Shown here piece after piece: positions 1 through 51,918 of a stretch of 64,000 bases of DNA (its first letter is position 1; each line of letters starts with the position of its first letter). The notes under the pieces are model-generated. The model saw only the letters and a list, made by a program, of their open reading frames with translations. It ran no database searches and was not told the origin of the DNA. The position numbers and the translations under genes were made by a program. The DNA comes from Alphaproteobacteria bacterium UBA3635 (GTDB lineage Bacteria > Pseudomonadota > Alphaproteobacteria > Rs-D84). The stretch spans positions 3,149 to 67,148 of the forward strand of contig DFKW01000006.1 of NCBI GenBank assembly GCA_002373935.1, read 5' to 3'.

Positions 1-2633
1 AGGCAATTGAAAATACCGAAATAATTGCATCGCGTTGTGGATTTTTAGTTAATGTGCACGAAAAACCGTTGCTGCCAAAATTCGGTGACGATTTTGAAAC
101 CGAGTGCCAAATGTTGCGCGACAATACTATGCAGGGGCTGGCGGCGCGGATTGCCGAACACAATATCACCGACACCCAACCATATTATGACCAGGCGGAA
201 TTTGAATTAAATGTTATTATTGGCATGGGATTTCCGGGATATTTTTTAATCGTTGCCGATTATATTCAATGGTGTCGCAACAACGATATTTTAACCGGAC
301 CGGGGCGTGGTTCGGGTGCGGGTTCTATTGTGGCGTGGTGTTTGGGTATTACCCATGTTGATCCGTTGAAATATGGTTTGCTGTTTGAAAGATTTTTGAA
401 TCCTGACCGTATTTCTATGCCGGATTTCGATGTCGATTTTGAACCGACGGGTATTGAACGCGTGTTGGCATATATTTGCGACAAATATGGGCATGATTCT
501 GTATGTCGTATTATCACATTTGGCAGTTTACAGGCCCGTGGTGCAATTCGCGATATTGGACGTGTGTATGGAATACCCTATTCTAAATCCGACAGATTAT
601 CAAAACTGATTCCGGCGGACGCAAAAAAATTAAAAGATGCGGTTGATTCTTCACCCGAAATGCAGGCGGTATTGGCGGCGGATGCCGATATGGACAAGGT
701 TGTGCGTGTTGCCGAAGAATTAGAGGGTTCTATACGAAACCTGGGGCAACATGCATGTGGCGTTGTTATTGGCGACCGTCCAACAACGCAAATCGCACCG
801 GTGTATCGCGACCCATCAAACCCGTTACCATCCAGTCAATATGATGGACATTATCTAGAGGCAACGGGCCTGATTAAATTTGACTTTTTGGGGTTGGAAA
901 CATTGGTTGTGTTAAAGCATGCGGTTAAATTGATTCAACAAACGCGTGGTATTAATGTTGATTTAGACAAAATCCCAACCGATGATGATGTCACAATGAA
1001 GTTGTGGCAACGGGGCCTGACCGAGGGGATATTCCAATTCGATGCTCCGTTCGTTAAACAAACACTGCGAAAAATGCAACCGACCAGTTTTTTGGAAATA
1101 TCTGCATTGAACGCATTAAATCGACCGGGACCAATCGCGTTTATTCCGCAATTTATCGCCCGTATGCATGGCGAAGAAAAAATTGAATATGTTCATCCCA
1201 AGGCCGAACCAATATTAAAAGAATCGTATGGCATTATCGTGTATCAAGAACAGGTTATGTTATTGACACGGGCTCTCGCGAACTTTACCCGCGGTGAATC
1301 AGATACCGTGCGCAAGGCCATGGGTAAAAAGAAATTGGATTTATTGGCCAAATTAGAGGTCAAGTTCCTGAAGGGATGTGAAGAGCAAGGAACATTGGAC
1401 AATGCAACCGCCAAAGATTTGTGGGAAAAATTCAAAGAATTTGCAAAGTATGCGTTTAATAAATCGCACGCGATTGCGTATTCTATTGTTGCAAATCAAT
1501 GTGCGTATTTGAAAGCTCACTATACCCCGGAATTTATTGCCGCGGCAATGTCCAGTAATTTGAACGATACAGACCAATTGGCGTTGTTTGTTGACGATGC
1601 AAAATCTAATTTCGGTATTCAAATTGTTGCACCCGATATAAACGAAAGTGAATCTTTGTTCACGGTTAAAGGTGGCAAAATTATTTATGCGTTGGCGGCA
1701 ATCAAGGGTGTTGGAACGGCGGCAACGGACGCAATTATTGCCGAACGTAATGCAAATGGTAAATTCAAAAATTTAACAGATTTTGCCAAACGGTGTGCGC
1801 CAATTATAAATAAAAGAATCCTAGAGGCGTTTGCCCGCGTTGGCGTTTTGGATTCATTAGAGAAAAATCGTGCGGCGATATTTATGAACGCAGATATGAT
1901 TTTGTCTTATGCGTCAAAAAGTAAAGATAATGGCAATTTGTTGTCTTTGTTTGCAAACACAACCCAGGATGATGTTGTCGAAGACAGATTGCACAGCAAT
2001 TTGCCTAAAACAGAACCGTGGACATTTGCGCAACGACTGGATAATGAATTGTCTGCATTGGGTTTTTATATTTCGGCACATCCGTTGGATCAATATAAAA
2101 ATTTAATTGCACGTGAAAAATTAGTCACCAGCAGTTCGCTGGAAACCATCGGCGACAGAAAACCGGTGCGTATTGCCGCAAATGTTGGGTCTTTTTCACG
2201 GCGACGGACCAAAACCGGCAAAGAAATGATTACTATCGCGGCATCGGACAGTTTCGGCAATATTGATGCGGTGGCGTTTGGTGATGCGTCACTACAATTT
2301 GCAAATATTTTATCCAAAGAATCTTTGGTTTTAATTTCGGGTAAATCGTCAAATCGTGATGACCGAGTGTCGGTGTTTGTTGATTCAATAACCCCATTAT
2401 CACAATGGGTGGCGCAAATCGCAAAGAAAATCACATTGGATGTATGGAACGGCGATGTGTTGCCGGATTTAAAGAAAACTTTATCCGCCCTGGGCGGGGG
2501 TTCTACGCGGGTGGTATTAAACTTGCATGGGGCGGACAAAATTGCAACAATGGCATTGCCAGGCGGCGTCAATTTGGGCGAACATACGGCGTCTGATTTG
2601 GCGGCATTAGGGGTCAAGGTCCAGATAGAATAA
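1..2633 (+). CDS. dnaE: DNA polymerase III alpha subunit, C-terminal ~875 aa (5' end lies outside the window)
   Basis: The frame is open from base 3 and continuous with ORF 54..2633. Sequence is Pol III alpha-like (GRGSGAGS, IVYQEQVM, FNKSHAIAYS) with a C-terminal OB-fold-like region. Confidence 0.95.
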   Translation, partial: AIENTEIIASRCGFLVNVHEKPLLPKFGDDFETECQMLRDNTMQGLAARIAEHNITDTQPYYDQAEFELNVIIGMGFPGYFLIVADYIQWCRNNDILTGPGRGSGAGSIVAWCLGITHVDPLKYGLLFERFLNPDRISMPDFDVDFEPTGIERVLAYICDKYGHDSVCRIITFGSLQARGAIRDIGRVYGIPYSKSDRLSKLIPADAKKLKDAVDSSPEMQAVLAADADMDKVVRVAEELEGSIRNLGQHACGVVIGDRPTTQIAPVYRDPSNPLPSSQYDGHYLEATGLIKFDFLGLETLVVLKHAVKLIQQTRGINVDLDKIPTDDDVTMKLWQRGLTEGIFQFDAPFVKQTLRKMQPTSFLEISALNALNRPGPIAFIPQFIARMHGEEKIEYVHPKAEPILKESYGIIVYQEQVMLLTRALANFTRGESDTVRKAMGKKKLDLLAKLEVKFLKGCEEQGTLDNATAKDLWEKFKEFAKYAFNKSHAIAYSIVANQCAYLKAHYTPEFIAAAMSSNLNDTDQLALFVDDAKSNFGIQIVAPDINESESLFTVKGGKIIYALAAIKGVGTAATDAIIAERNANGKFKNLTDFAKRCAPIINKRILEAFARVGVLDSLEKNRAAIFMNADMILSYASKSKDNGNLLSLFANTTQDDVVEDRLHSNLPKTEPWTFAQRLDNELSALGFYISAHPLDQYKNLIAREKLVTSSSLETIGDRKPVRIAANVGSFSRRRTKTGKEMITIAASDSFGNIDAVAFGDASLQFANILSKESLVLISGKSSNRDDRVSVFVDSITPLSQWVAQIAKKITLDVWNGDVLPDLKKTLSALGGGSTRVVLNLHGADKIATMALPGGVNLGEHTASDLAALGVKVQIE

Positions 2634-4712: not shown

Positions 4713-7103
4713 ATGATTAAGCGTTTAAGATATGTTTTCTGTGGTTTGTTTATTGCGTCGATAACGGCGCCGGTGGCGTTTGGTGCCACGCCCGCCGCGC
4801 AACGTACGGCCGTGCCAACCGCGGCACGCGCATCGGGTGCGCCCGCCGCACAACGCACAAAATCGGCAACGACGCGCAATGCGCGTACGATTACAAAACG
4901 CGCGGTCGTCACCCCGAATCGGACGGCAACCACGGTAAATTCTATATCCAGGGCGGGTAATATTATCAGTGATGCCGGCAACGCGATTATTCATCGTGCT
5001 TTTGGCATTTCACGCAGTGCAAAACCGGTCGCAATTTCACGTACGGCCACGGGTACAAATACCGCACGTTCGGCGGCACGTGTTGGTGGTGCATCACGCG
5101 CACGCGCAACCGCGGTATTTAGCGATATTTCAAAATTGGGTGACGGGTATAATCAATGCCGCGATGCATATAATACATGTATGGATCAGTTCTGTGCCGG
5201 CGCAAACGAAACATATCGTCGTTGTTATTGCAGTAATACTTTCCATGATTTCCGCGATCGCGAGGATGCATTGGATGCGGCAACAACTTTATTGGCACAA
5301 TTTGAAAACAACAATTTGAACGCGGTTAATTTGTCGGCCGAAGAAGTAAATGCAATGTACACGGCAACGGCGGGCGAGCAAGCAATTAAAAATGACACAT
5401 CGGGCGCCGCGGAATTGTTAAGCAATATTGATGATTTGTTGTCTGGCAAGAAAAAGGCATCGGACACACAAAACAGTTTAACATCTTTGTCGGGATTGTC
5501 GGTTGATTTTTCGACCGATTTGGGCGACATTTGGGGAACAACATCGACATCATTGTTTGGCGACAATTCTGGGGCCGATTTATCAACCATGGACGGTGTG
5601 GAGTTATACAACAACGCACATAAACAATGTATGCAATTGGTTGGCGAAACATGCGATGCGGGCGCGGTTCGCAACATGGCAAAAAGTGCGTACAGCATTT
5701 TAATCACCCAGGATTGCAACGCATATCAAAAGAAAATTGATGCCAAGGCCGAACAGGTTAAATCGACGGTGCGCACGGCGGAAAAATACCTGCGCGAGGC
5801 ACGATTAGAAGAATATCGTTCACACAATTCGGCGGATGTGAATGCATGTTTGGACCGGGTCGAGGCCGCCCTGACCCAGCCAACGGCATGCGGTGCGGAT
5901 TATGTGAAATGTTTGGATTATTCGGGTGTATATATCAATTCTACATCAGGCGAGCCGATTTATTCCCCGCGTTTGTTCAAATTAAATGAATTGATTGTTT
6001 TGGACGGCACGTCTGCGGATGTGTTGGCACAAAACCCGCAATTTAATCAATTTTTGGATTCAAAACGCGTGTATGCGCGGACCGCATTGGAATCTTGTCG
6101 TGATTTGGCGGACACGGTTTGGGCGGAGTTTAAGCGCAACGCGTTGATTAAAATTTCCCAGGCCCAGGATGAAAAAATCGAAGAAGTGAAAATGTCTTGC
6201 GTTTCGACAATGAAGGATTGTTACGACACGCAAAGTGATGCGTTGAAAAGTTTTGACGACACAACGGCCCAGGCGTCCGGCGCATTGGCGGCCCGTGCAT
6301 CACGCGACATGTGCAGTGATAAAGTTTTGGCTTGCGCGGCGTTGTATGGTGACGAGGACGCTTGTCAAATTGATGCACGGACAAACAAGGTCACTGATAA
6401 AAACGGTAAAAAATGCGGATTGACATCTTTGCGTAACTTTGTTGATACGGTTGACGATGTTCGTATTGCCGAGGGTTGTGGCACGGCGGTTGAAAATTAT
6501 TTGAAACAAATTTGCACACCATCAACAGGCACCGAGGGATATCCGTGGAATTGCCGTTTGCGTGCATTTGGAAATTTGAACGCCAACCACAGTTGGTCAA
6601 GTTCTGCCCAAAATTCCGGCAAAGATTTGGTTAGTATGGTTATAAATTATGCAATCGATAATTGCGGTGTCGGAACAGATGGAAAACTTGAAACACGTTC
6701 GCAAAACGAGGTTGTTCAGCAATTAGAAACACTTCGCGAAGATTTGGGTGATTTGATTGGTGAAAAATGCGAGATGGCCGATGGTATTTGGGTCGATGCG
6801 GGCGACGATGATAACACAGGGTTGTCTGACGGAACAGTCATAGATAGTTTTTATAGTGTGAACTTTGGCAAAAGTCATACCCAGGCACAATCTGATTACG
6901 GCGTTGACACATGGGGTAAATGCATCAGAAACAGTGTCAAGGCGCGTTGCGATGCGGAAAACAAACGCACTGGAAATAACGGGTACGCAACATACGATGC
7001 ATCAACCGGACAATGCAATTTGACAATAGAATATTACAAATATCAATGCGAACAAGTGTTGGGTATTTGGACAGATGATAATAATTGTTATATAGAAAAG
7101 TAA
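4713..7103 (+). CDS. Large secreted Cys-rich protein, unknown family
   Basis: Start trimmed to MIKRLRYVFCGLFIASITAPVAFG (signal peptide). An Ala/Arg/Thr-rich low-complexity region is followed by roughly 28 Cys over ~650 aa. Confidence 0.75.
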   Translation: MIKRLRYVFCGLFIASITAPVAFGATPAAQRTAVPTAARASGAPAAQRTKSATTRNARTITKRAVVTPNRTATTVNSISRAGNIISDAGNAIIHRAFGISRSAKPVAISRTATGTNTARSAARVGGASRARATAVFSDISKLGDGYNQCRDAYNTCMDQFCAGANETYRRCYCSNTFHDFRDREDALDAATTLLAQFENNNLNAVNLSAEEVNAMYTATAGEQAIKNDTSGAAELLSNIDDLLSGKKKASDTQNSLTSLSGLSVDFSTDLGDIWGTTSTSLFGDNSGADLSTMDGVELYNNAHKQCMQLVGETCDAGAVRNMAKSAYSILITQDCNAYQKKIDAKAEQVKSTVRTAEKYLREARLEEYRSHNSADVNACLDRVEAALTQPTACGADYVKCLDYSGVYINSTSGEPIYSPRLFKLNELIVLDGTSADVLAQNPQFNQFLDSKRVYARTALESCRDLADTVWAEFKRNALIKISQAQDEKIEEVKMSCVSTMKDCYDTQSDALKSFDDTTAQASGALAARASRDMCSDKVLACAALYGDEDACQIDARTNKVTDKNGKKCGLTSLRNFVDTVDDVRIAEGCGTAVENYLKQICTPSTGTEGYPWNCRLRAFGNLNANHSWSSSAQNSGKDLVSMVINYAIDNCGVGTDGKLETRSQNEVVQQLETLREDLGDLIGEKCEMADGIWVDAGDDDNTGLSDGTVIDSFYSVNFGKSHTQAQSDYGVDTWGKCIRNSVKARCDAENKRTGNNGYATYDASTGQCNLTIEYYKYQCEQVLGIWTDDNNCYIEK

Positions 7104-21051: not shown

Positions 21052-21125
21052 TGGTGCGGGCGAAGGGAATCGAACCCTCGTCTAAAGCTTGGGAAGCTTT
21101 CGTGCTGCCATTATACCACGCCCGC
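21052..21125 (-). tRNA. tRNA-Gly (anticodon CCC)
   Basis: 74 nt. GCGGGCG/CGCCCGC acceptor stem, TTCGATT T-loop, anticodon loop TTCCCAA, encoded CCA. One mismatch in the D-stem. Confidence 0.9.
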
Positions 21126-27760: not shown

Positions 27761-28149
27761 TTTACACTGGATATTGGGCAAAAATAAAAGAATACGAACA
27801 ACAAAATTTGACCCCAGTTGGTATTTCCGGATGGTCGCCGGATGGGTATGCTGGCAAAACATACAAAAAACTGGCACCGAAATACGCGTGGTGGAAAGAG
27901 TGGCACGATAACAATTTATCTGAACAGTGGTATATAAACAAATATTTTGAAACCGTATTAAATAAACTGAATCCTCGCACGGTTGCGCAAGATCTGCAAC
28001 AAATGGGACAAAATGTTGTTTTATTGTGCTTTGAAACGCCCGATAAATTTTGCCACAGACATTTGGTTGCAACGTGGTTAAACGCATCCAAATTTGCAGA
28101 TGTTCGTGAATATATTTTAAAATCAAATCAAATGCAAATGAATCTGTAA
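27757..28149 (+). CDS. DUF488-like protein
   Basis: 130 aa with VVLLCFE..DKFCHRHLVATWL motif. ATGA overlap with the xseA stop. Confidence 0.6.
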   Translation: MIYTGYWAKIKEYEQQNLTPVGISGWSPDGYAGKTYKKLAPKYAWWKEWHDNNLSEQWYINKYFETVLNKLNPRTVAQDLQQMGQNVVLLCFETPDKFCHRHLVATWLNASKFADVREYILKSNQMQMNL

Positions 28150-28150
28150 A

Positions 28151-28174
28151 AAAACGCCCAATTGGGCGTTTTTT
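28151..28174. terminator. Intrinsic terminator (CGCCCAATTGGGCG type)
   Basis: AAAAA-CGCCC AATT GGGCG-TTTTTT. Confidence 0.85.
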
Positions 28175-28175
28175 A

Positions 28176-28210
28176 CAGTTTTCAGAGTACAGAGTGCAGA
28201 GTTCAATTAT
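28176..28210 (+). repeat. Tandem heptamer array (CAGAGTN x5)
   Basis: CAGTTTT CAGAGTA CAGAGTG CAGAGTT CAATTAT. Confidence 0.85.
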
Positions 28211-28238
28211 TGTGTCGGTCGTGGACCGACAACGTTAT

Positions 28239-28325
28239 TTATGTGTTTTGACGGCGGTCAATGCCAACCCACGGTGCAGCAATGCACACAGCAAATCCGG
28301 CGGAATTGATTAAAACAATAGACAT
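28239..28325 (-). pseudogene. Internally deleted, frameshifted remnant of the 72-aa XRE gene
   Basis: Aligns to both ends of 38794..39012 but lacks ~130 bp internally. A 28-codon stub remains behind an intact AGGAGG RBS. Confidence 0.8.
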
Positions 28326-28373
28326 CATCGAACCTCCTGTTTTTATTTATCACCGCCAGGATGGCGGATTCAC

Positions 28374-28445
28374 AACTGCCCCGTCACCCTGACGGGTGCC
28401 ACCCCTTCTTTTTGTGCTGGCGCACAGAAAAGACGGGGAATGTCC
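28374..28445. repeat. 72-nt two-hairpin module (copy 1 of 4)
   Basis: aactgcccc - variable hairpin - cacccc - invariant imperfect hairpin CCCCTTCTTTTTGTGC tggc GCACAGAAAAGACGGGG - aatgtcc. Confidence 0.85.
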
Positions 28446-28537
28446 AGAGATAAAAATCATAGTGCAACAACTGCACTCTGCCTGCGCCCCATAGCCCAAC
28501 GGGCGCCGGGGTGAACTTTGCACTCTGAACTTTGAAT

Positions 28538-28690
28538 AAAAAATACCGCGGAAAAAGCGCGGTTGGAGGCCAGAAAACTACTACAGAGTGTAGTGCCGCT
28601 TATTCAATATATTCGCGACCCTCCAACCAACTGGGTGGAGTTTTCTCTGTACAAGGTTTTTCTGGACCCACATTGGCAACACACCAATGC
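28538..28690 (-). ncRNA. Candidate structured RNA of ~150 nt (copy 1), unknown class
   Basis: Promoter TTGCAA-17-TAAAAT (28725-28697) and terminator ACCGCG/CGCGGT plus U-run (28563-28538). Helices covary with copy 2. Confidence 0.6.
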
Positions 28691-28726
28691 AGATATATTT
28701 TAACCGACAAAGTATAAATTTGCAAA

Positions 28727-30379
28727 TTATTTTATCAATGTTTTTGCGGTGGCGATGGATTCAGGTGTTATGTCGGCGCCACTGATTATGCGGGCGATTT
28801 CGTTCACACGTTCGTCACCCGTGATTTCCACAACAGATGTCGTTGTTTTGTCGCCGTCTGTTGATTTTGATATTTTATAATGACGGTCGGCAAAGCCCGC
28901 AACCTGGGCCGAGTGGGTTATAACAATTGATTGTGCATTTTGCGACAATTTATTCAAACGTGCACCAACCGCGGATGCGGTTGCGCCACTGATACCCGTA
29001 TCAATTTCATCAAACACAAATGTGTGTGCGTCCGCCCCGCCCGCCAAAACCACGCGCAGCGCCAACATAAAACGCGCCAATTCACCACCAGATGCCGATT
29101 TGTTCAATGGTGCAAATGGCATGCCGGGATTTGTTTTAATCATAAATACAACATCGTCCACACCGTTGGCGGTTGGGTTTGCGTTTGTAATTTCAACCAT
29201 AAAATCCGCAGACCCCAATTTCAAATCCGGCAATTCTGACAAAATACGTGTTCTGATTGCCGCAGATGCATCCGCCCGCATTTTGGATAATTTGTGTGCG
29301 GCATCATTGAATTGTTTTTTTGCGCCCGTCAATTCGTGTTGTAATTTTTGCAATTCGGCATCGGAATTATCGATTGCATTTAATGCCATTTCCATATCGC
29401 GTAATTTATTCGGTAATTCGTCCGGCAAAACACGATGTTTGCGTGCCAAACTGCGAATTGCAAACAGACGTTCCTCGACATCATCAATTGTGCCAATGTC
29501 CGGTGCGTCCGGTTTAATAGATTCCGCCACATCTGCAATATTTTGTGCAACATTATACAATGTATCGATTTGTTCCGCATACGGGTTTTCGCCATCGCCG
29601 TGCAACCGTTCCAAAATATGCGCAACATCGCAAACAAGTGAATCCAACGAATTCCCGTTCGGATTCAACGCATTTTGTGCATCGTTCAAAATTGCGGTAT
29701 TTTTTTCCGCGTTCATCATATTTGCACGAATTGTCGCCAATTCGGCTTCTTCGCCGGGTTTGACATTTAACGCACGCAATTCGGCAACATTGTGTTCCAA
29801 AAATTCGTGTTCAGATGCCGCGCGACTAACCAATTCTTGCAATTCAGATAACCGGGTTTCGATTGTGTGCATTGTGTTGTATGATTCACGGACAGATTTT
29901 TGCACATCTGTGAACCCTGCAATATTTAATGCGGCAAATGCGTCCAATGTTGGACGATGTGTTGCCGGGTTTAACAATGTATGATTTGCAAACTGACCAT
30001 GGATTTCAACCAATGCATCGCCAACCATTTTCAACACACGCACCGACACGGGTGTATCGTTTATCCATGCGCGACTTTTCCCGTCCGACGACAAAGTGCG
30101 ACGCAACACAACGGTATCATCCACATCCAGTCCATTTTCCATCAATATATTTTTAACATTATCAGACACAGATGTAAATTCCGCCGTGGACGCGCCCACA
30201 TCGCACCCGGCACGCACCAGGCCGGCATCACTGCGCGCACCCAATGCCAAAGACAATGCATCCATTAAAATACTTTTGCCCGCACCCGTTTCACCGGTTA
30301 AAACATTTAATCCACCACCGAATTCCAAATTCAGTTTTTCAATTAAAACTATATTAGAAATATTTAATGATGTCAGCAT
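28727..30379 (-). CDS. recN: DNA repair protein RecN
   Basis: 550 aa with N-terminal LTGETGAGKSILMDAL and an SMC-like coiled coil. Confidence 0.95.
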   Translation of the reverse strand: MLTSLNISNIVLIEKLNLEFGGGLNVLTGETGAGKSILMDALSLALGARSDAGLVRAGCDVGASTAEFTSVSDNVKNILMENGLDVDDTVVLRRTLSSDGKSRAWINDTPVSVRVLKMVGDALVEIHGQFANHTLLNPATHRPTLDAFAALNIAGFTDVQKSVRESYNTMHTIETRLSELQELVSRAASEHEFLEHNVAELRALNVKPGEEAELATIRANMMNAEKNTAILNDAQNALNPNGNSLDSLVCDVAHILERLHGDGENPYAEQIDTLYNVAQNIADVAESIKPDAPDIGTIDDVEERLFAIRSLARKHRVLPDELPNKLRDMEMALNAIDNSDAELQKLQHELTGAKKQFNDAAHKLSKMRADASAAIRTRILSELPDLKLGSADFMVEITNANPTANGVDDVVFMIKTNPGMPFAPLNKSASGGELARFMLALRVVLAGGADAHTFVFDEIDTGISGATASAVGARLNKLSQNAQSIVITHSAQVAGFADRHYKISKSTDGDKTTTSVVEITGDERVNEIARIISGADITPESIATAKTLIK

Positions 30380-38793: not shown

Positions 38794-39012
38794 TTATTTA
38801 TGTGTTTTGACGGCGGTCAATGCCAATCCACGATGCAGCAACGCGCAGAGCAAATCCGGCGGAATTGGTAATCGCCCAATTTCATACAGGTACAAATCGT
38901 GCGACGATATTTTCAAAATTTCCGCCACGGTGGCTTTATTCATATGCAATGATTTACGCGCCCGGCGCAGTTGTTGTCCATAGGCACGCGCATCAATTAA
39001 AACAATAGACAT
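38794..39012 (-). CDS. Small XRE-family HTH protein (72 aa)
   Basis: LRRARKSLHMNKATVAEILKISSHDLYLYEIGR HTH. RBS GGAGGAG. Terminator at 38775-38788. Confidence 0.75.
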   Translation of the reverse strand: MSIVLIDARAYGQQLRRARKSLHMNKATVAEILKISSHDLYLYEIGRLPIPPDLLCALLHRGLALTAVKTHK

Positions 39013-39222
39013 TTCTCTCCTCCATTTTTATTTATCACCGCCAGGATGGCGGATTCACAACTGCCCCGTCACCCTGACGGGTGCCACCCCTTCTTTTTGT
39101 GCTGGCGCACAGAAAAGACGGGGAATGTCCAGAGATAAAAATCATAGTGCAACAACTGCACTCTGCCTGCGCCCCATAGCCCAACGGGCGACGGGGTGAA
39201 CTTTGCACTCTGAACTTTGAAT
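39013..39222 (-). promoter_or_regulatory. Multi-hairpin 5' leader of the XRE gene, containing heptamer blocks and the 72-nt module (39059-39130)
   Basis: Successive hairpins: CCCC..GCCC gtt GGGC..GGGG, AGTGCA/TGCACT, the module hairpins, and CCGCCA/TGGCGG. About 165 nt is identical to 28341-28505. Confidence 0.6.
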
Positions 39223-39375
39223 AAAAAATACCGCGGGAAAAGCGCGGTTGGAGGCAAGAAAAACTACCATAGAGTGTAGCGTCGCTTATTCGAATATTCA
39301 CGACCCTCCAACCAACTGGGTGGAGTTTTCTCTATGCAAGGGTTTTCTTGTCCCACATTGGCAACACACCAATGC
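39223..39375 (-). ncRNA. Candidate structured RNA of ~150 nt (copy 2), unknown class; possibly a cis-acting attenuator
   Basis: Lies between promoter 39410-39382 and terminator 39248-39223. Three helices are supported by compensatory or wobble changes against copy 1. Confidence 0.6.
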
Positions 39376-39381
39376 AGACAT

Positions 39382-39410
39382 ATTTTAACCGATAAAATAT
39401 GATTTTGCAA
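39382..39410 (-). promoter_or_regulatory. Sigma-70-type promoter of the candidate RNA
   Basis: TTGCAA (39410-39405), 17-nt spacer, TAAAAT (39387-39382). Confidence 0.65.
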
Positions 39411-39464
39411 ATTATTATTAATAATTCATTATATGAAAAAAACCGCCCGATTGGGCGGTTTTGG

Positions 39465-49478: not shown

Positions 49479-49525
49479 TATAATTGTTTCTTCTAAAAAA
49501 ATCCGCCCGTTTGGGCGGTTTTTTT

Positions 49526-49560
49526 CAGTGTTCAAAGTGCAGAGTTCAGAGTGCAGTTGA
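49526..49560 (+). repeat. Tandem heptamer array (x5)
   Basis: CAGTGTT CAAAGTG CAGAGTT CAGAGTG CAGTTGA, immediately after the rlpA terminator (49503-49525). Confidence 0.85.
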
Positions 49561-51691: not shown

Positions 51692-51862
51692 AACTGCCCC
51701 ACCGGCTACGCCGGTCCCCCCCCTTCTTTTTGTGCTGGCGCACAGAAAAGACGGGGAATATCCAGAGTCGGAGGTGCAATAAAATTTTTGAACTGCCCCG
51801 TCCCGCTTTCGCGGTCCACCCCTTCTTTTTGTGCTGGCGCACAGAAAAGACGGGGAATATCC
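51692..51862. repeat. Two tandem copies of the 72-nt two-hairpin module (51692-51763, 51791-51862; 99-nt period)
   Basis: Same consensus as 28374-28445 and 39059-39130. The first hairpin differs in each copy but stays paired. Confidence 0.9.
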
Positions 51863-51883: not shown

Positions 51884-51918
51884 ATAACTGAACTCTGCAC
51901 TCTGAAAACTGAAAACTA
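51884..51918 (-). repeat. Tandem heptamer array (x5)
   Basis: Read on the minus strand: TAGTTTT CAGTTTT CAGAGTG CAGAGTT CAGTTAT. It abuts the ligA terminator (51921-51935). Confidence 0.85.

Follow-up and report, generated by a model that had tools for sequence, protein, structure and literature searches.

sRNA-Xcc1 is an 88-nt RNA of Xanthomonas campestris that was seen on Northern blots (PMC2996969). It is called a trans-acting small RNA (sRNA) in the literature and is associated with integrons and prophages in Xanthomonas, Xylella, and other Proteobacteria: in integron cassettes it precedes symE in the same orientation (bioRxiv 10.1101/2025.06.18.660453), in APSE phages it stands ahead of an ORF6N gene (bioRxiv 10.1101/2020.03.17.996009), and in Xylella it is multi-copy (PMC12189769). 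Here we describe an RNA that is probably a distant, 5'-extended relative of this family and not a member of it, judging from a comparison through the Rfam model and consensus. It is encoded twice on the minus strand of a 64,000-nt stretch of the genome of Alphaproteobacteria bacterium UBA3635 (GenBank assembly GCA_002373935.1, contig DFKW01000006.1, positions 3,149 to 67,148; hereafter, the window), and about 75 homologues were found in uncultured Alphaproteobacteria of gut and rumen. We consider it likely to be a cis-acting 5' leader, a transcription attenuator and possibly a riboswitch, which sets passage through an intrinsic terminator into the next gene.

Sequence analysis finds at this locus a set of covarying helices with overlapping strands, framed by a promoter and an intrinsic terminator and linked to a downstream gene. 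Copy 2 (39223..39375, minus strand) runs approximately from the transcription start to the U-run of the terminator, and our covariance model of the family, R1, matches it at 39224-39377 (100 bits, E=8e-26). Copy 1 (28538..28690, minus strand) is matched at 28539-28692 (106.6 bits). R1 detected no further copy in the window, a 19.6-bit match at 28021-28175 on the plus strand being noise. In 5' to 3' order, the leader consists of P1, PG, helix A, helix B, P2, an A-rich linker, the 5' box and G-box (P3), P4, P5, the 3' strand of helix A, the 3' box, and the terminator; P2 is an optional hairpin after helix B and is missing from the subfamily of the window. In copy 2, hairpin P1 (39355..39375, GCAUUGG-UGUGUUG-CCAAUGU) carries a GUGUU loop that is conserved across the family. 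It is followed by hairpin PG (39340..39354), in which GGG (39354-39352) pairs with CCC (39342-39340) and the loop of which is the 5' strand of helix A (CAAGAAAA/UUUUCUUG, 39350-39343 with 39262-39255). Helix B joins CAUAGAG to CUCUAUG (39330..39336 with 39274-39268). P4 (39281..39304), which is helix C (GUCGU...GCGAC), has a conserved internal loop, GAAUA/AAUAA, and the loop of hairpin P5 (39264..39279, CUAC...GUAG) is the 3' strand of helix B, CUCUAUG. The counterparts in copy 1, all on the minus strand, are P1 at 28690-28670, helix A (CCAGAAAA/UUUUCUGG) at 28665-28658 with 28577-28570, helix B (UACAGAG/CUCUGUA) at 28651-28645 with 28588-28582, helix C (GUCGC/GCGGC, within P4) at 28619-28595, and P5 at 28593-28578.

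Four segments compete for pairing within this framework. The 5' box (CUCCACCC, segment 1; 39318..39325 in copy 2, 28640-28633 in copy 1) is the putative anti-antiterminator and pairs locally with the G-box (GGUUGGAGG, segment 2; 39305..39313 and 28628-28620) to form hairpin P3. The alternative partner of the G-box is the 3' box (CCUCCAACC, segment 3; 39246..39254 and 28569-28561), which is common to the antiterminator and the terminator. The intrinsic terminator, located by a terminator scan, spans 39221..39248 in copy 2 (ACCGCG-CUUUUCC-CGCGGU at 39248-39230, then AUUUUUUAU) and 28563-28545 in copy 1; its 3' arm is segment 4, and in copy 2 it overlaps the 3' box by 3 nt. A preliminary description of this DNA had proposed helices A, B, and C and the boxes on the minus strand, and we found every one of these segments at the coordinates it gave; it had overlooked P5 (which excludes helix B), the GGG:CCC hairpin PG, and the conserved GUGUU loop of P1. 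The minimum free energy (MFE) folds calculated with RNAfold (-52.6 kcal/mol, z=-3.75 for copy 2; -55.9 kcal/mol, z=-4.11 for copy 1) contain helices A, B, and C, the local hairpin, and the terminator in both copies.

The two copies differ inside the RNA by 13 substitutions and 2 indels. Eight of the 13 substitutions lie within helices, with three compensated double changes and no pair broken. When 13 random substitutions were placed on the copy-2 fold in 200,000 simulated runs, at least three compensated double changes arose with P=1.1e-4, and all pairs were left unbroken with P=9e-5; the earlier proposal that compensatory changes between the copies fix the fold is thus borne out. The assignment to the minus strand is equally secure, because the promoter and the terminator exist only there, G-U pairs are frequent in the family, and R1 scores 100-182 bits on the RNA strand vs at most 24 bits on the opposite one. 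Divergence between the copies, which belong to a duplicated segment (28235-28731 and 38794-39416), is uneven: in a comparison of 28345-28690 with 39030-39375, 13 substitutions fall in the RNA core of ~110 nt and 2 differences across the next ~265 nt, comprising the 3' box, the terminator, a repeat insertion, and the gene start. The pattern suggests that the 3' part was homogenized by gene conversion or that compensatory changes accumulated unusually fast in the helices.

Homologues were collected by several routes. Species-representative genomes searched with a local-hairpin pattern returned 22 loci, 16 of which are true homologues, in Candidatus Enterousia, in Rickettsiales-labelled and other Alphaproteobacteria metagenome-assembled genomes (MAGs), and in rumen MAGs labelled uncultured proteobacterium. 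A metagenome scan for all three boxes, with one free position each, gave 52 loci (49 true). The same three-box pattern had no match in viral contigs and thus gave no sign of a phage origin. BLAST of the 1-kb locus found no match in phage records (distant mode) or complete E. coli genomes (near mode). R1 recovered copies that the patterns do not capture: a tandem second leader in locus L015, a divergent leader in locus L055, and one degenerate copy. In L015, two complete leaders (5641-5814 and 6029-6200, minus strand) stand in tandem, 215 nt apart, before one helix-turn-helix (HTH) gene, and in L055 two leaders (893-1065, minus strand; 1158-1346, plus strand) diverge from a shared intergenic region. 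Several copies per genome or contig are found in relatives. As a pattern-free control, homologues of the XRE-type protein encoded downstream of copy 2 were found and their contigs fetched via exact protein identity; the RNA lies directly upstream of the gene in 10/10 of these loci (91-112 bits), in agreement with the preliminary description, which had placed it ahead of the XRE gene. A literature search with the box sequences gave only irrelevant matches, and the sequence is not present in the first 200 supplementary files of a human-microbiome survey of structured RNAs (PMC8040213).

Across these homologues, the paired positions covary. On two MAFFT alignments, made from sequence only with no structure fitting, 96.4% and 91.8% of the cells of the named helices are paired, and covariation is 0.471 and 0.401 vs ~0.16 for column shuffles (0/500 as high) and at most 0.11 for slid partners. 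The model-based alignment of 66 members gives 96.4% of cells paired and a covariation of 0.563, vs 0.164 when columns are shuffled and no more than 0.082 when partners are slid. In an all-against-all comparison of mutual information, the top 18 pairs belong to helices B, A, and P1. Double changes occur at all 8 pairs of P1 (a hairpin of 8-9 base pairs, 99% of cells paired), at all 5 model pairs of helix A (99.4% paired; e.g., AU28/CG24/GC12), and at all 7 model pairs of helix B, which holds the top mutual-information pairs of the whole alignment and for which a duplex test of own partners against cross partners gave p<1e-4. The P4 stem covaries as well (GC57/CG4/UA4 and CG21/UA20/UG16), and its tip carries an inserted hairpin in some relatives. 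P5 has 4-5 base pairs with 92.8% of cells paired (AU37/UA22/CG2 at one pair). For PG, pair 29:43 of alignment A5 is formed in every member (GC46/GU9/AU7), and the variants of its two strands match up: GAGG occurs with CCU(C), GGAG with CUUC or CUCC, and UAGG with CCUA. Since the 5' strand of helix A sits in the PG loop, PG and helix A together form a predicted H-type pseudoknot. The fold proposed from the two window copies, with its helices A, B, and C, therefore has strong covariation behind it on both kinds of alignment, and independent variation of the paired positions is not what the added homologues show.

Two further pairings were considered. The MFE fold extends helix A by pairing GGGG with CCUC of the 3' box; this is probably secondary, because GGAG variants break it and the local GGG:CCC pairing compensates. 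In alignment A5, columns 32 and 177 (at the GGGG-U-GU junction and at the C-A-C junction before P5) might form a long-range pair (UA40/CG12), flanked by a conserved G:C (31:178). The window copies do not form this pair, which could reflect either a tertiary contact or shared phylogeny.

Covariation also supports the alternative pairings. The helix between the G-box and the 3' box is paired in 594/594 cells of the 66 aligned members and carries compensatory changes at two positions, with UA61/CG3/UG2 at position 3 and GC64/AU1/UG1 at position 9. At position 9, the AU and UG pairs belong to copies that R1 detected and the patterns did not, namely the second copies of L015 (GGUUGGAGA/UCUCCAACC) and L055 (GGUUGGAGU/GCUCCAACC), where the boxes are compensated. 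The variable column of the 3' box covaries in addition with the terminator 3' arm (AU61/GU3/GC2), which indicates that one nucleotide of the 3' box is under selection for pairing with two different partners. The terminator stem itself is paired in 96.3% of cells of the model alignment, with covariation, and its 5' arm starts 3-5 nt inside the 3' box in 61/62 homologues. The local partner of the G-box drifts: position 6 of the 5' box may be A, G, C, or U, uncompensated and with 10 non-pairs with the G-box, and in the XRE-linked relatives found without patterns the 5' box is CUCCAUCC, CUCCAAAC, or CUCCAACA, with the G-box and the 3' box intact. Finally, 0-1 nt separates the 3' strand of helix B from the 3' arm of P5, a pseudoknot geometry from which P5 and the full helix B appear sterically mutually exclusive; in constrained folds, P5 forms alongside the helix of the G-box and 3' box. 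The covariation thus backs both conformers, which is uncommon for expression platforms. The terminator/antiterminator switch suggested in the preliminary description is supported by the unbroken helix of the two boxes, its double changes, and the column shared with the terminator arm, and the local hairpin of 5' box and G-box is predicted in both window copies, its uncompensated drift in the family fitting an anti-antiterminator/antiterminator/terminator design. On these alignments, the earlier interpretation appears largely right.

The start of the RNA can be placed as well. A consensus scan predicted a sigma-70-type promoter for copy 2 (39382..39410, minus strand), with a -35 box TTGCAA (39410-39405), a 17-nt spacer, and a -10 box TAAAAT (39387-39382), and the same spacing is seen in copy 1 (28697..28725, minus strand; TTGCAA at 28725-28720, TAAAAT at 28702-28697). 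Among 69 distinct upstream regions of the family, 67 have a TANNNT that ends ~4-5 nt before the first position of the model (P1), and 53 have in addition TTG at -35 spacing; the leader thus starts at a predicted promoter of its own. Downstream, a co-oriented open reading frame (ORF) with a strong Shine-Dalgarno (SD) sequence begins within 120 nt of the RNA 3' end in 51/63 loci with enough flank, about 20-60 nt past the terminator and typically at ~25-30 nt, a distance so short that it leaves no room for a separate promoter. The RNA has one feature of a riboswitch, a conserved and covarying structured domain in the 5' untranslated region with an overlapping expression platform, and two of an attenuator, a G+C-rich hairpin with a U-run and an alternative helix that shares 3-5 nt with the terminator stem. 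We favor a cis-acting attenuator or riboswitch-like leader because of the position of the promoter, the close co-oriented ORFs, the tandem leaders in L015, and the lack of a conserved leader peptide.

The proposed mechanism is as follows. In the OFF state, segments 1 and 2 would form the local hairpin and helices A (with PG) and B would close the core, leaving segment 3 free; segments 3 and 4 would then form the terminator, and an RNA of ~150 nt would be released. In the ON state, segments 2 and 3 would form an antiterminator of 9 base pairs that encloses P4 and P5, helix B would be undone, and the (A)ACC of segment 3 would be kept from the terminator, letting RNA polymerase read into the gene. 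The sensor would be the 5' domain, comprising P1 with its GUGUU loop, the PG/A pseudoknot, helix B, and the internal loop of P4; it would bind an effector (small molecule, protein, or RNA) that biases the choice of state. We infer that the two states alternate in vivo, with the ON and OFF directions given here, and that such an effector exists. Copy 2 would control the XRE-type regulator gene, and copy 1 would have lost its gene with the RNA intact.

In favor of this mechanism, the nested folds of copy-2 transcripts cut before the terminator 3' arm are nearly equal in energy (OFF -43.7 vs antiterminator -42.4 kcal/mol); those of copy 1 differ more (-47.0 vs -42.5 kcal/mol). Several observations weigh against it. 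In typical relatives, such as L006 (-54.8 vs -40.0 kcal/mol), the OFF fold is ~15 kcal/mol more stable than the nested ON fold, and a change of state would there depend on kinetic control or on a strong effector. The CG/GC variant at the position shared by antiterminator and terminator is found in three copies on one contig and possibly represents one event. The invariance of the boxes is partly built in by the retrieval patterns, as 60/66 members of the model-based alignment were retrieved through patterns that demanded a 5' box and a G-box, in most cases together with a 3' box; 5 XRE-linked lineages and 2 extra copies supply the pattern-free evidence. What lies downstream is a heterogeneous set of genes with no pointer to a particular ligand. 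Moreover, the RNA of copy 1 is intact and scores above copy 2 with R1 (106.6 vs 100 bits) despite its dead gene, which hints at a function independent of the downstream ORF.

How does this leader compare with known RNAs? At the gathering score, Rfam 15 detects in the 16 homologue loci only tRNAs and in the window a single tRNA gene (21055-21125, minus strand, 63.2 bits), the sole Rfam match in its whole length. A permissive Rfam search of the window locus gave only noise around the terminator of the upstream gene, and the window copies have no match to sRNA-Xcc1 at E<=10. Permissive scans of relatives returned sRNA-Xcc1 (RF02221) as the best family for L006, L045, and L043 (31.9, 37.0, and 35.6 bits; the gathering score of RF02221 is 53 bits), the whole 87-position model aligning from the G-box to just past the 3' box. 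Both RNAs have an outer helix of 9 base pairs, G-rich against C-rich (GgCcGGggG / CccCCgGcC in sRNA-Xcc1), around two hairpins, which corresponds to the antiterminator conformer; in both, the first hairpin opens with AAUA and closes with UAA, and ACC and a U-run follow. Both lie upstream of and co-oriented with a gene, with several copies per genome. They differ in that the sRNA-Xcc1 transcript begins at the outer helix, whereas the leader starts 70-100 nt further upstream, its P1 lying 60-100 nt ahead of the G-box. Elements found only in the leader are P1, the PG/A pseudoknot, helix B, P2, a competing 5' box, and a separate terminator hairpin. The leader promoter thus does not give a transcript of ~88 nt beginning at the outer helix, and processing to a shorter RNA is possible. 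The outer-helix box of sRNA-Xcc1 is GGCCGGGGG, unlike the G-box GGUUGGAGG of the leader, and its hosts are beta- and gamma-Proteobacteria, unlike the uncultured gut Alphaproteobacteria of the leader. BLAST with the RF02221 consensus found no match in plasmids and phages. In viral sequences, the pattern GGCCGGGGG...CCCCCGGCC matched 114 loci; a scan of 20 of them with Rfam gave no RF02221, and a search of 80 with R1 gave no match.

Other regulatory RNAs share parts of the design. Like the ZTP/pfl and fluoride/crcB ON-riboswitches, the leader has a structured domain 5' of a gene, a long-range helix whose 3' strand is the terminator 5' arm, and a gene start a few tens of nt past the U-run, and it occurs in tandem; unlike them, it has no Rfam match to a known class, a third competitor (the 5' box), and a heterogeneous regulon of regulators, secreted proteins, and a methyltransferase instead of a metabolic pathway. 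C4 antisense RNA and isrK (RF01695, RF01394) of P1-like prophage immunity also have an outer helix around two hairpins followed by ACC and lie upstream of, and co-transcribed with, the controlled gene. Like the leader, the C4 RNA of the phage P1 immI region has short complementary boxes on either side of its core, upstream and downstream. The leader has no significant match to these families (isrK at 17.7 bits, on the wrong strand), its internal box is SD-like and pairs within the RNA, and it has a built-in intrinsic terminator instead of Rho-dependent polarity. The c-di-GMP-I (GEMM) riboswitches are a functional analogy, being multi-copy and located ahead of surface or secreted proteins and regulators; their fold is unrelated. 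ANTAR antiterminators are tandem hexaloop hairpins, and the RAT antiterminator is a hairpin of ~29 nt that overlaps a terminator. We rejected an ANTAR/RAT assignment on inspection of the alignment, since the antiterminator of the leader is a long-range helix of 9 base pairs and the loop of its local hairpin is variable and of 4 nt.

What else could this RNA do? The preliminary description had noted that the CCUCC boxes resemble anti-SD seeds, and the RNA may be mainly a trans-acting sRNA, or a C4-like one that is cis-encoded and diffusible. Its C-rich CCUCC(AACC) boxes would pair with SD regions, possibly including that of the gene directly downstream, and the G-box would mask the seed. We judge this unlikely as the main role. 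Its own promoter and an efficient-looking terminator would indeed yield a discrete RNA, copies are multiple per genome or contig, copy 1 is intact without a gene, and the nearest Rfam family, by the sub-threshold matches in the same register in L006, L045, and L043, is sRNA-Xcc1. Downstream ribosome-binding sites also pair better with CCUCCAACC than control sites do (-8.3 vs -5.4 kcal/mol), but CCUCC is identical to the anti-SD of 16S rRNA, so this result shows only that the SDs are strong, and the extended UUGG match is not clearly enriched (7/62 vs 10/246). Both C-rich boxes are base-paired in every predicted conformer. A purely trans role would not account for the obligatory linkage to a gene or for the three-way covariation that involves the terminator arm, and a tandem of leaders ahead of a single gene is an arrangement typical of cis regulators. 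In place of the loose relation to ORFs expected of such an sRNA, we found a tight coupling to the downstream gene (the 51/63 co-oriented ORFs and 10/10 XRE loci given above), and the trans-acting reading is not supported as the main one. The two roles are compatible, and an additional trans role may have room. Masking of the downstream ribosome-binding site by an anti-SD was rejected as a separate candidate, the stronger complementarity being indistinguishable from a strong SD.

The 1:2, 2:3, and 3:4 logic of anti-antiterminator, antiterminator, and terminator is that of the trp-type leader attenuators, and ribosome-mediated attenuation, in which a short leader peptide translated across segment 1 would choose between 2:3 and 3:4, has to be considered on account of this same four-segment geometry and of an AUG at the end of P1 in many members. 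We regard it as very improbable: an AUG-initiated frame is open across the 5' box in at most 26/65 members, with the three frames alike, no SD stands in front, and hairpins of variable length (P2, the P4 insert) break any frame. Leader-peptide attenuation was thus rejected for want of a conserved leader peptide in these 65 members, and the choice would be set by something besides a translating ribosome. A somewhat less remote alternative, though still improbable, is one static pseudoknotted fold, with helix A stacked on the helix of G-box and 3' box and PG stacked on A, that serves as a constitutive 5' untranslated element with a fixed level of attenuation or acts in stability, in processing, as a protein platform, or as a ribozyme. 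Helix A and the helix of the two boxes could coexist topologically, provided that the long connecting loops reach across the stack, a point that counts against the two-state attenuator as well, and the many invariant unpaired nucleotides and two pseudoknot-type interactions recall ribozymes and other complex folded RNAs. However, a permanently formed helix between G-box and 3' box would remove 3-5 nt of the terminator stem and leave a universally conserved terminator useless, the conserved 5' box would be partnerless, and helix B and P5 cannot coexist, yet both covary. The switching attenuator accounts for the RNA better, and we retain it as the likely reading.

The genes found behind the leaders include XRE HTH regulators, an EcoRI-type adenine methylase, a beta-flower protein, and many signal-peptide, Cys-rich, or leucine-rich repeat (LRR) proteins; the gene behind the leader of L038 and L052 encodes an EcoRI-type adenine methyltransferase (Pfam PF13651, E=3e-116 for L052), an unusual target beside the XRE regulators and secreted proteins. 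In the window, which is chromosomal (recN, alaS, tgt, and xseA are present; ~44% G+C), copy 2 is followed by a gene for a 72-residue XRE-type HTH protein (38794..39012, minus strand). Its Pfam scores (HTH_31, 23.1 bits; HTH_19, 20 bits) lie below the cut-offs of 27 and 30.2, and its homologues in Alphaproteobacteria MAGs are annotated as HTH regulators. Copy 1, directly downstream of recN, is followed by a decayed XRE gene (28239..28325, minus strand), identified by aligning both copies with the syntenic relative L001 and by translation: the start codon is kept, and a deletion of ~126-128 nt removes the HTH and shifts the frame, leaving a remnant of 28 codons.

Between terminator and XRE start lies a repeat-rich insertion of ~190 nt (39025..39220, also 28340-28535, minus strand) made of heptamer repeats and a ATTCCCCGTCTTTTCTGTGCGCCAGCAC element. 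It is missing from L001 and does not belong to the ancestral leader. Its core consists of ATTCCCCGTCTTTTCTGTGCGCCAGCAC and then AAAAAGAAGGGG-hairpin-GGGGCAGTT and is present four times in the window, always on the minus strand, with additional cores at 51732-51759 and 51831-51858; it looks like an element of the miniature inverted-repeat transposable (MITE) or repetitive extragenic palindromic (REP) type, and it has no match in Rfam. The heptamer runs (TTCAGAG / TGCAGAG / TTCAAAG) stand directly 3' of intrinsic terminators, with 10 pattern matches vs 0.06 expected; they lie at 28181-28205 and 49524-49555 on the plus strand and at 28512-28536, 39197-39221, and 51889-51906 on the minus strand.

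If the attenuator reading is correct, this leader is a well-supported orphan regulatory RNA in a group without cultured members and with almost no known regulation, Candidatus Enterousia and related Alphaproteobacteria of gut and rumen. With one complementary box in three copies and a terminator, it is also simple enough in design to be tested directly and reused in synthetic biology. More tentatively, its sensor domain, grafted onto an sRNA-Xcc1-like core, could represent a previously unrecognized riboswitch class. In that case, which we hold to be possible but doubtful, a small molecule or second messenger would co-ordinate surface and secreted proteins, XRE regulators, and a DNA methyltransferase in host-associated Alphaproteobacteria. 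sRNA-Xcc1 is annotated in many sequences of plant pathogens, prophages, and integrons, and its mechanism is poorly defined in the papers cited here; were the riboswitch class real, the sRNA-Xcc1 known from plant pathogens and prophages could be what is left of the expression platform of a cis-regulator and not a classical trans-acting sRNA. For the gut and rumen bacteria themselves, secreted and surface proteins and small regulators as targets suggest that this RNA takes part in the control of host interaction.

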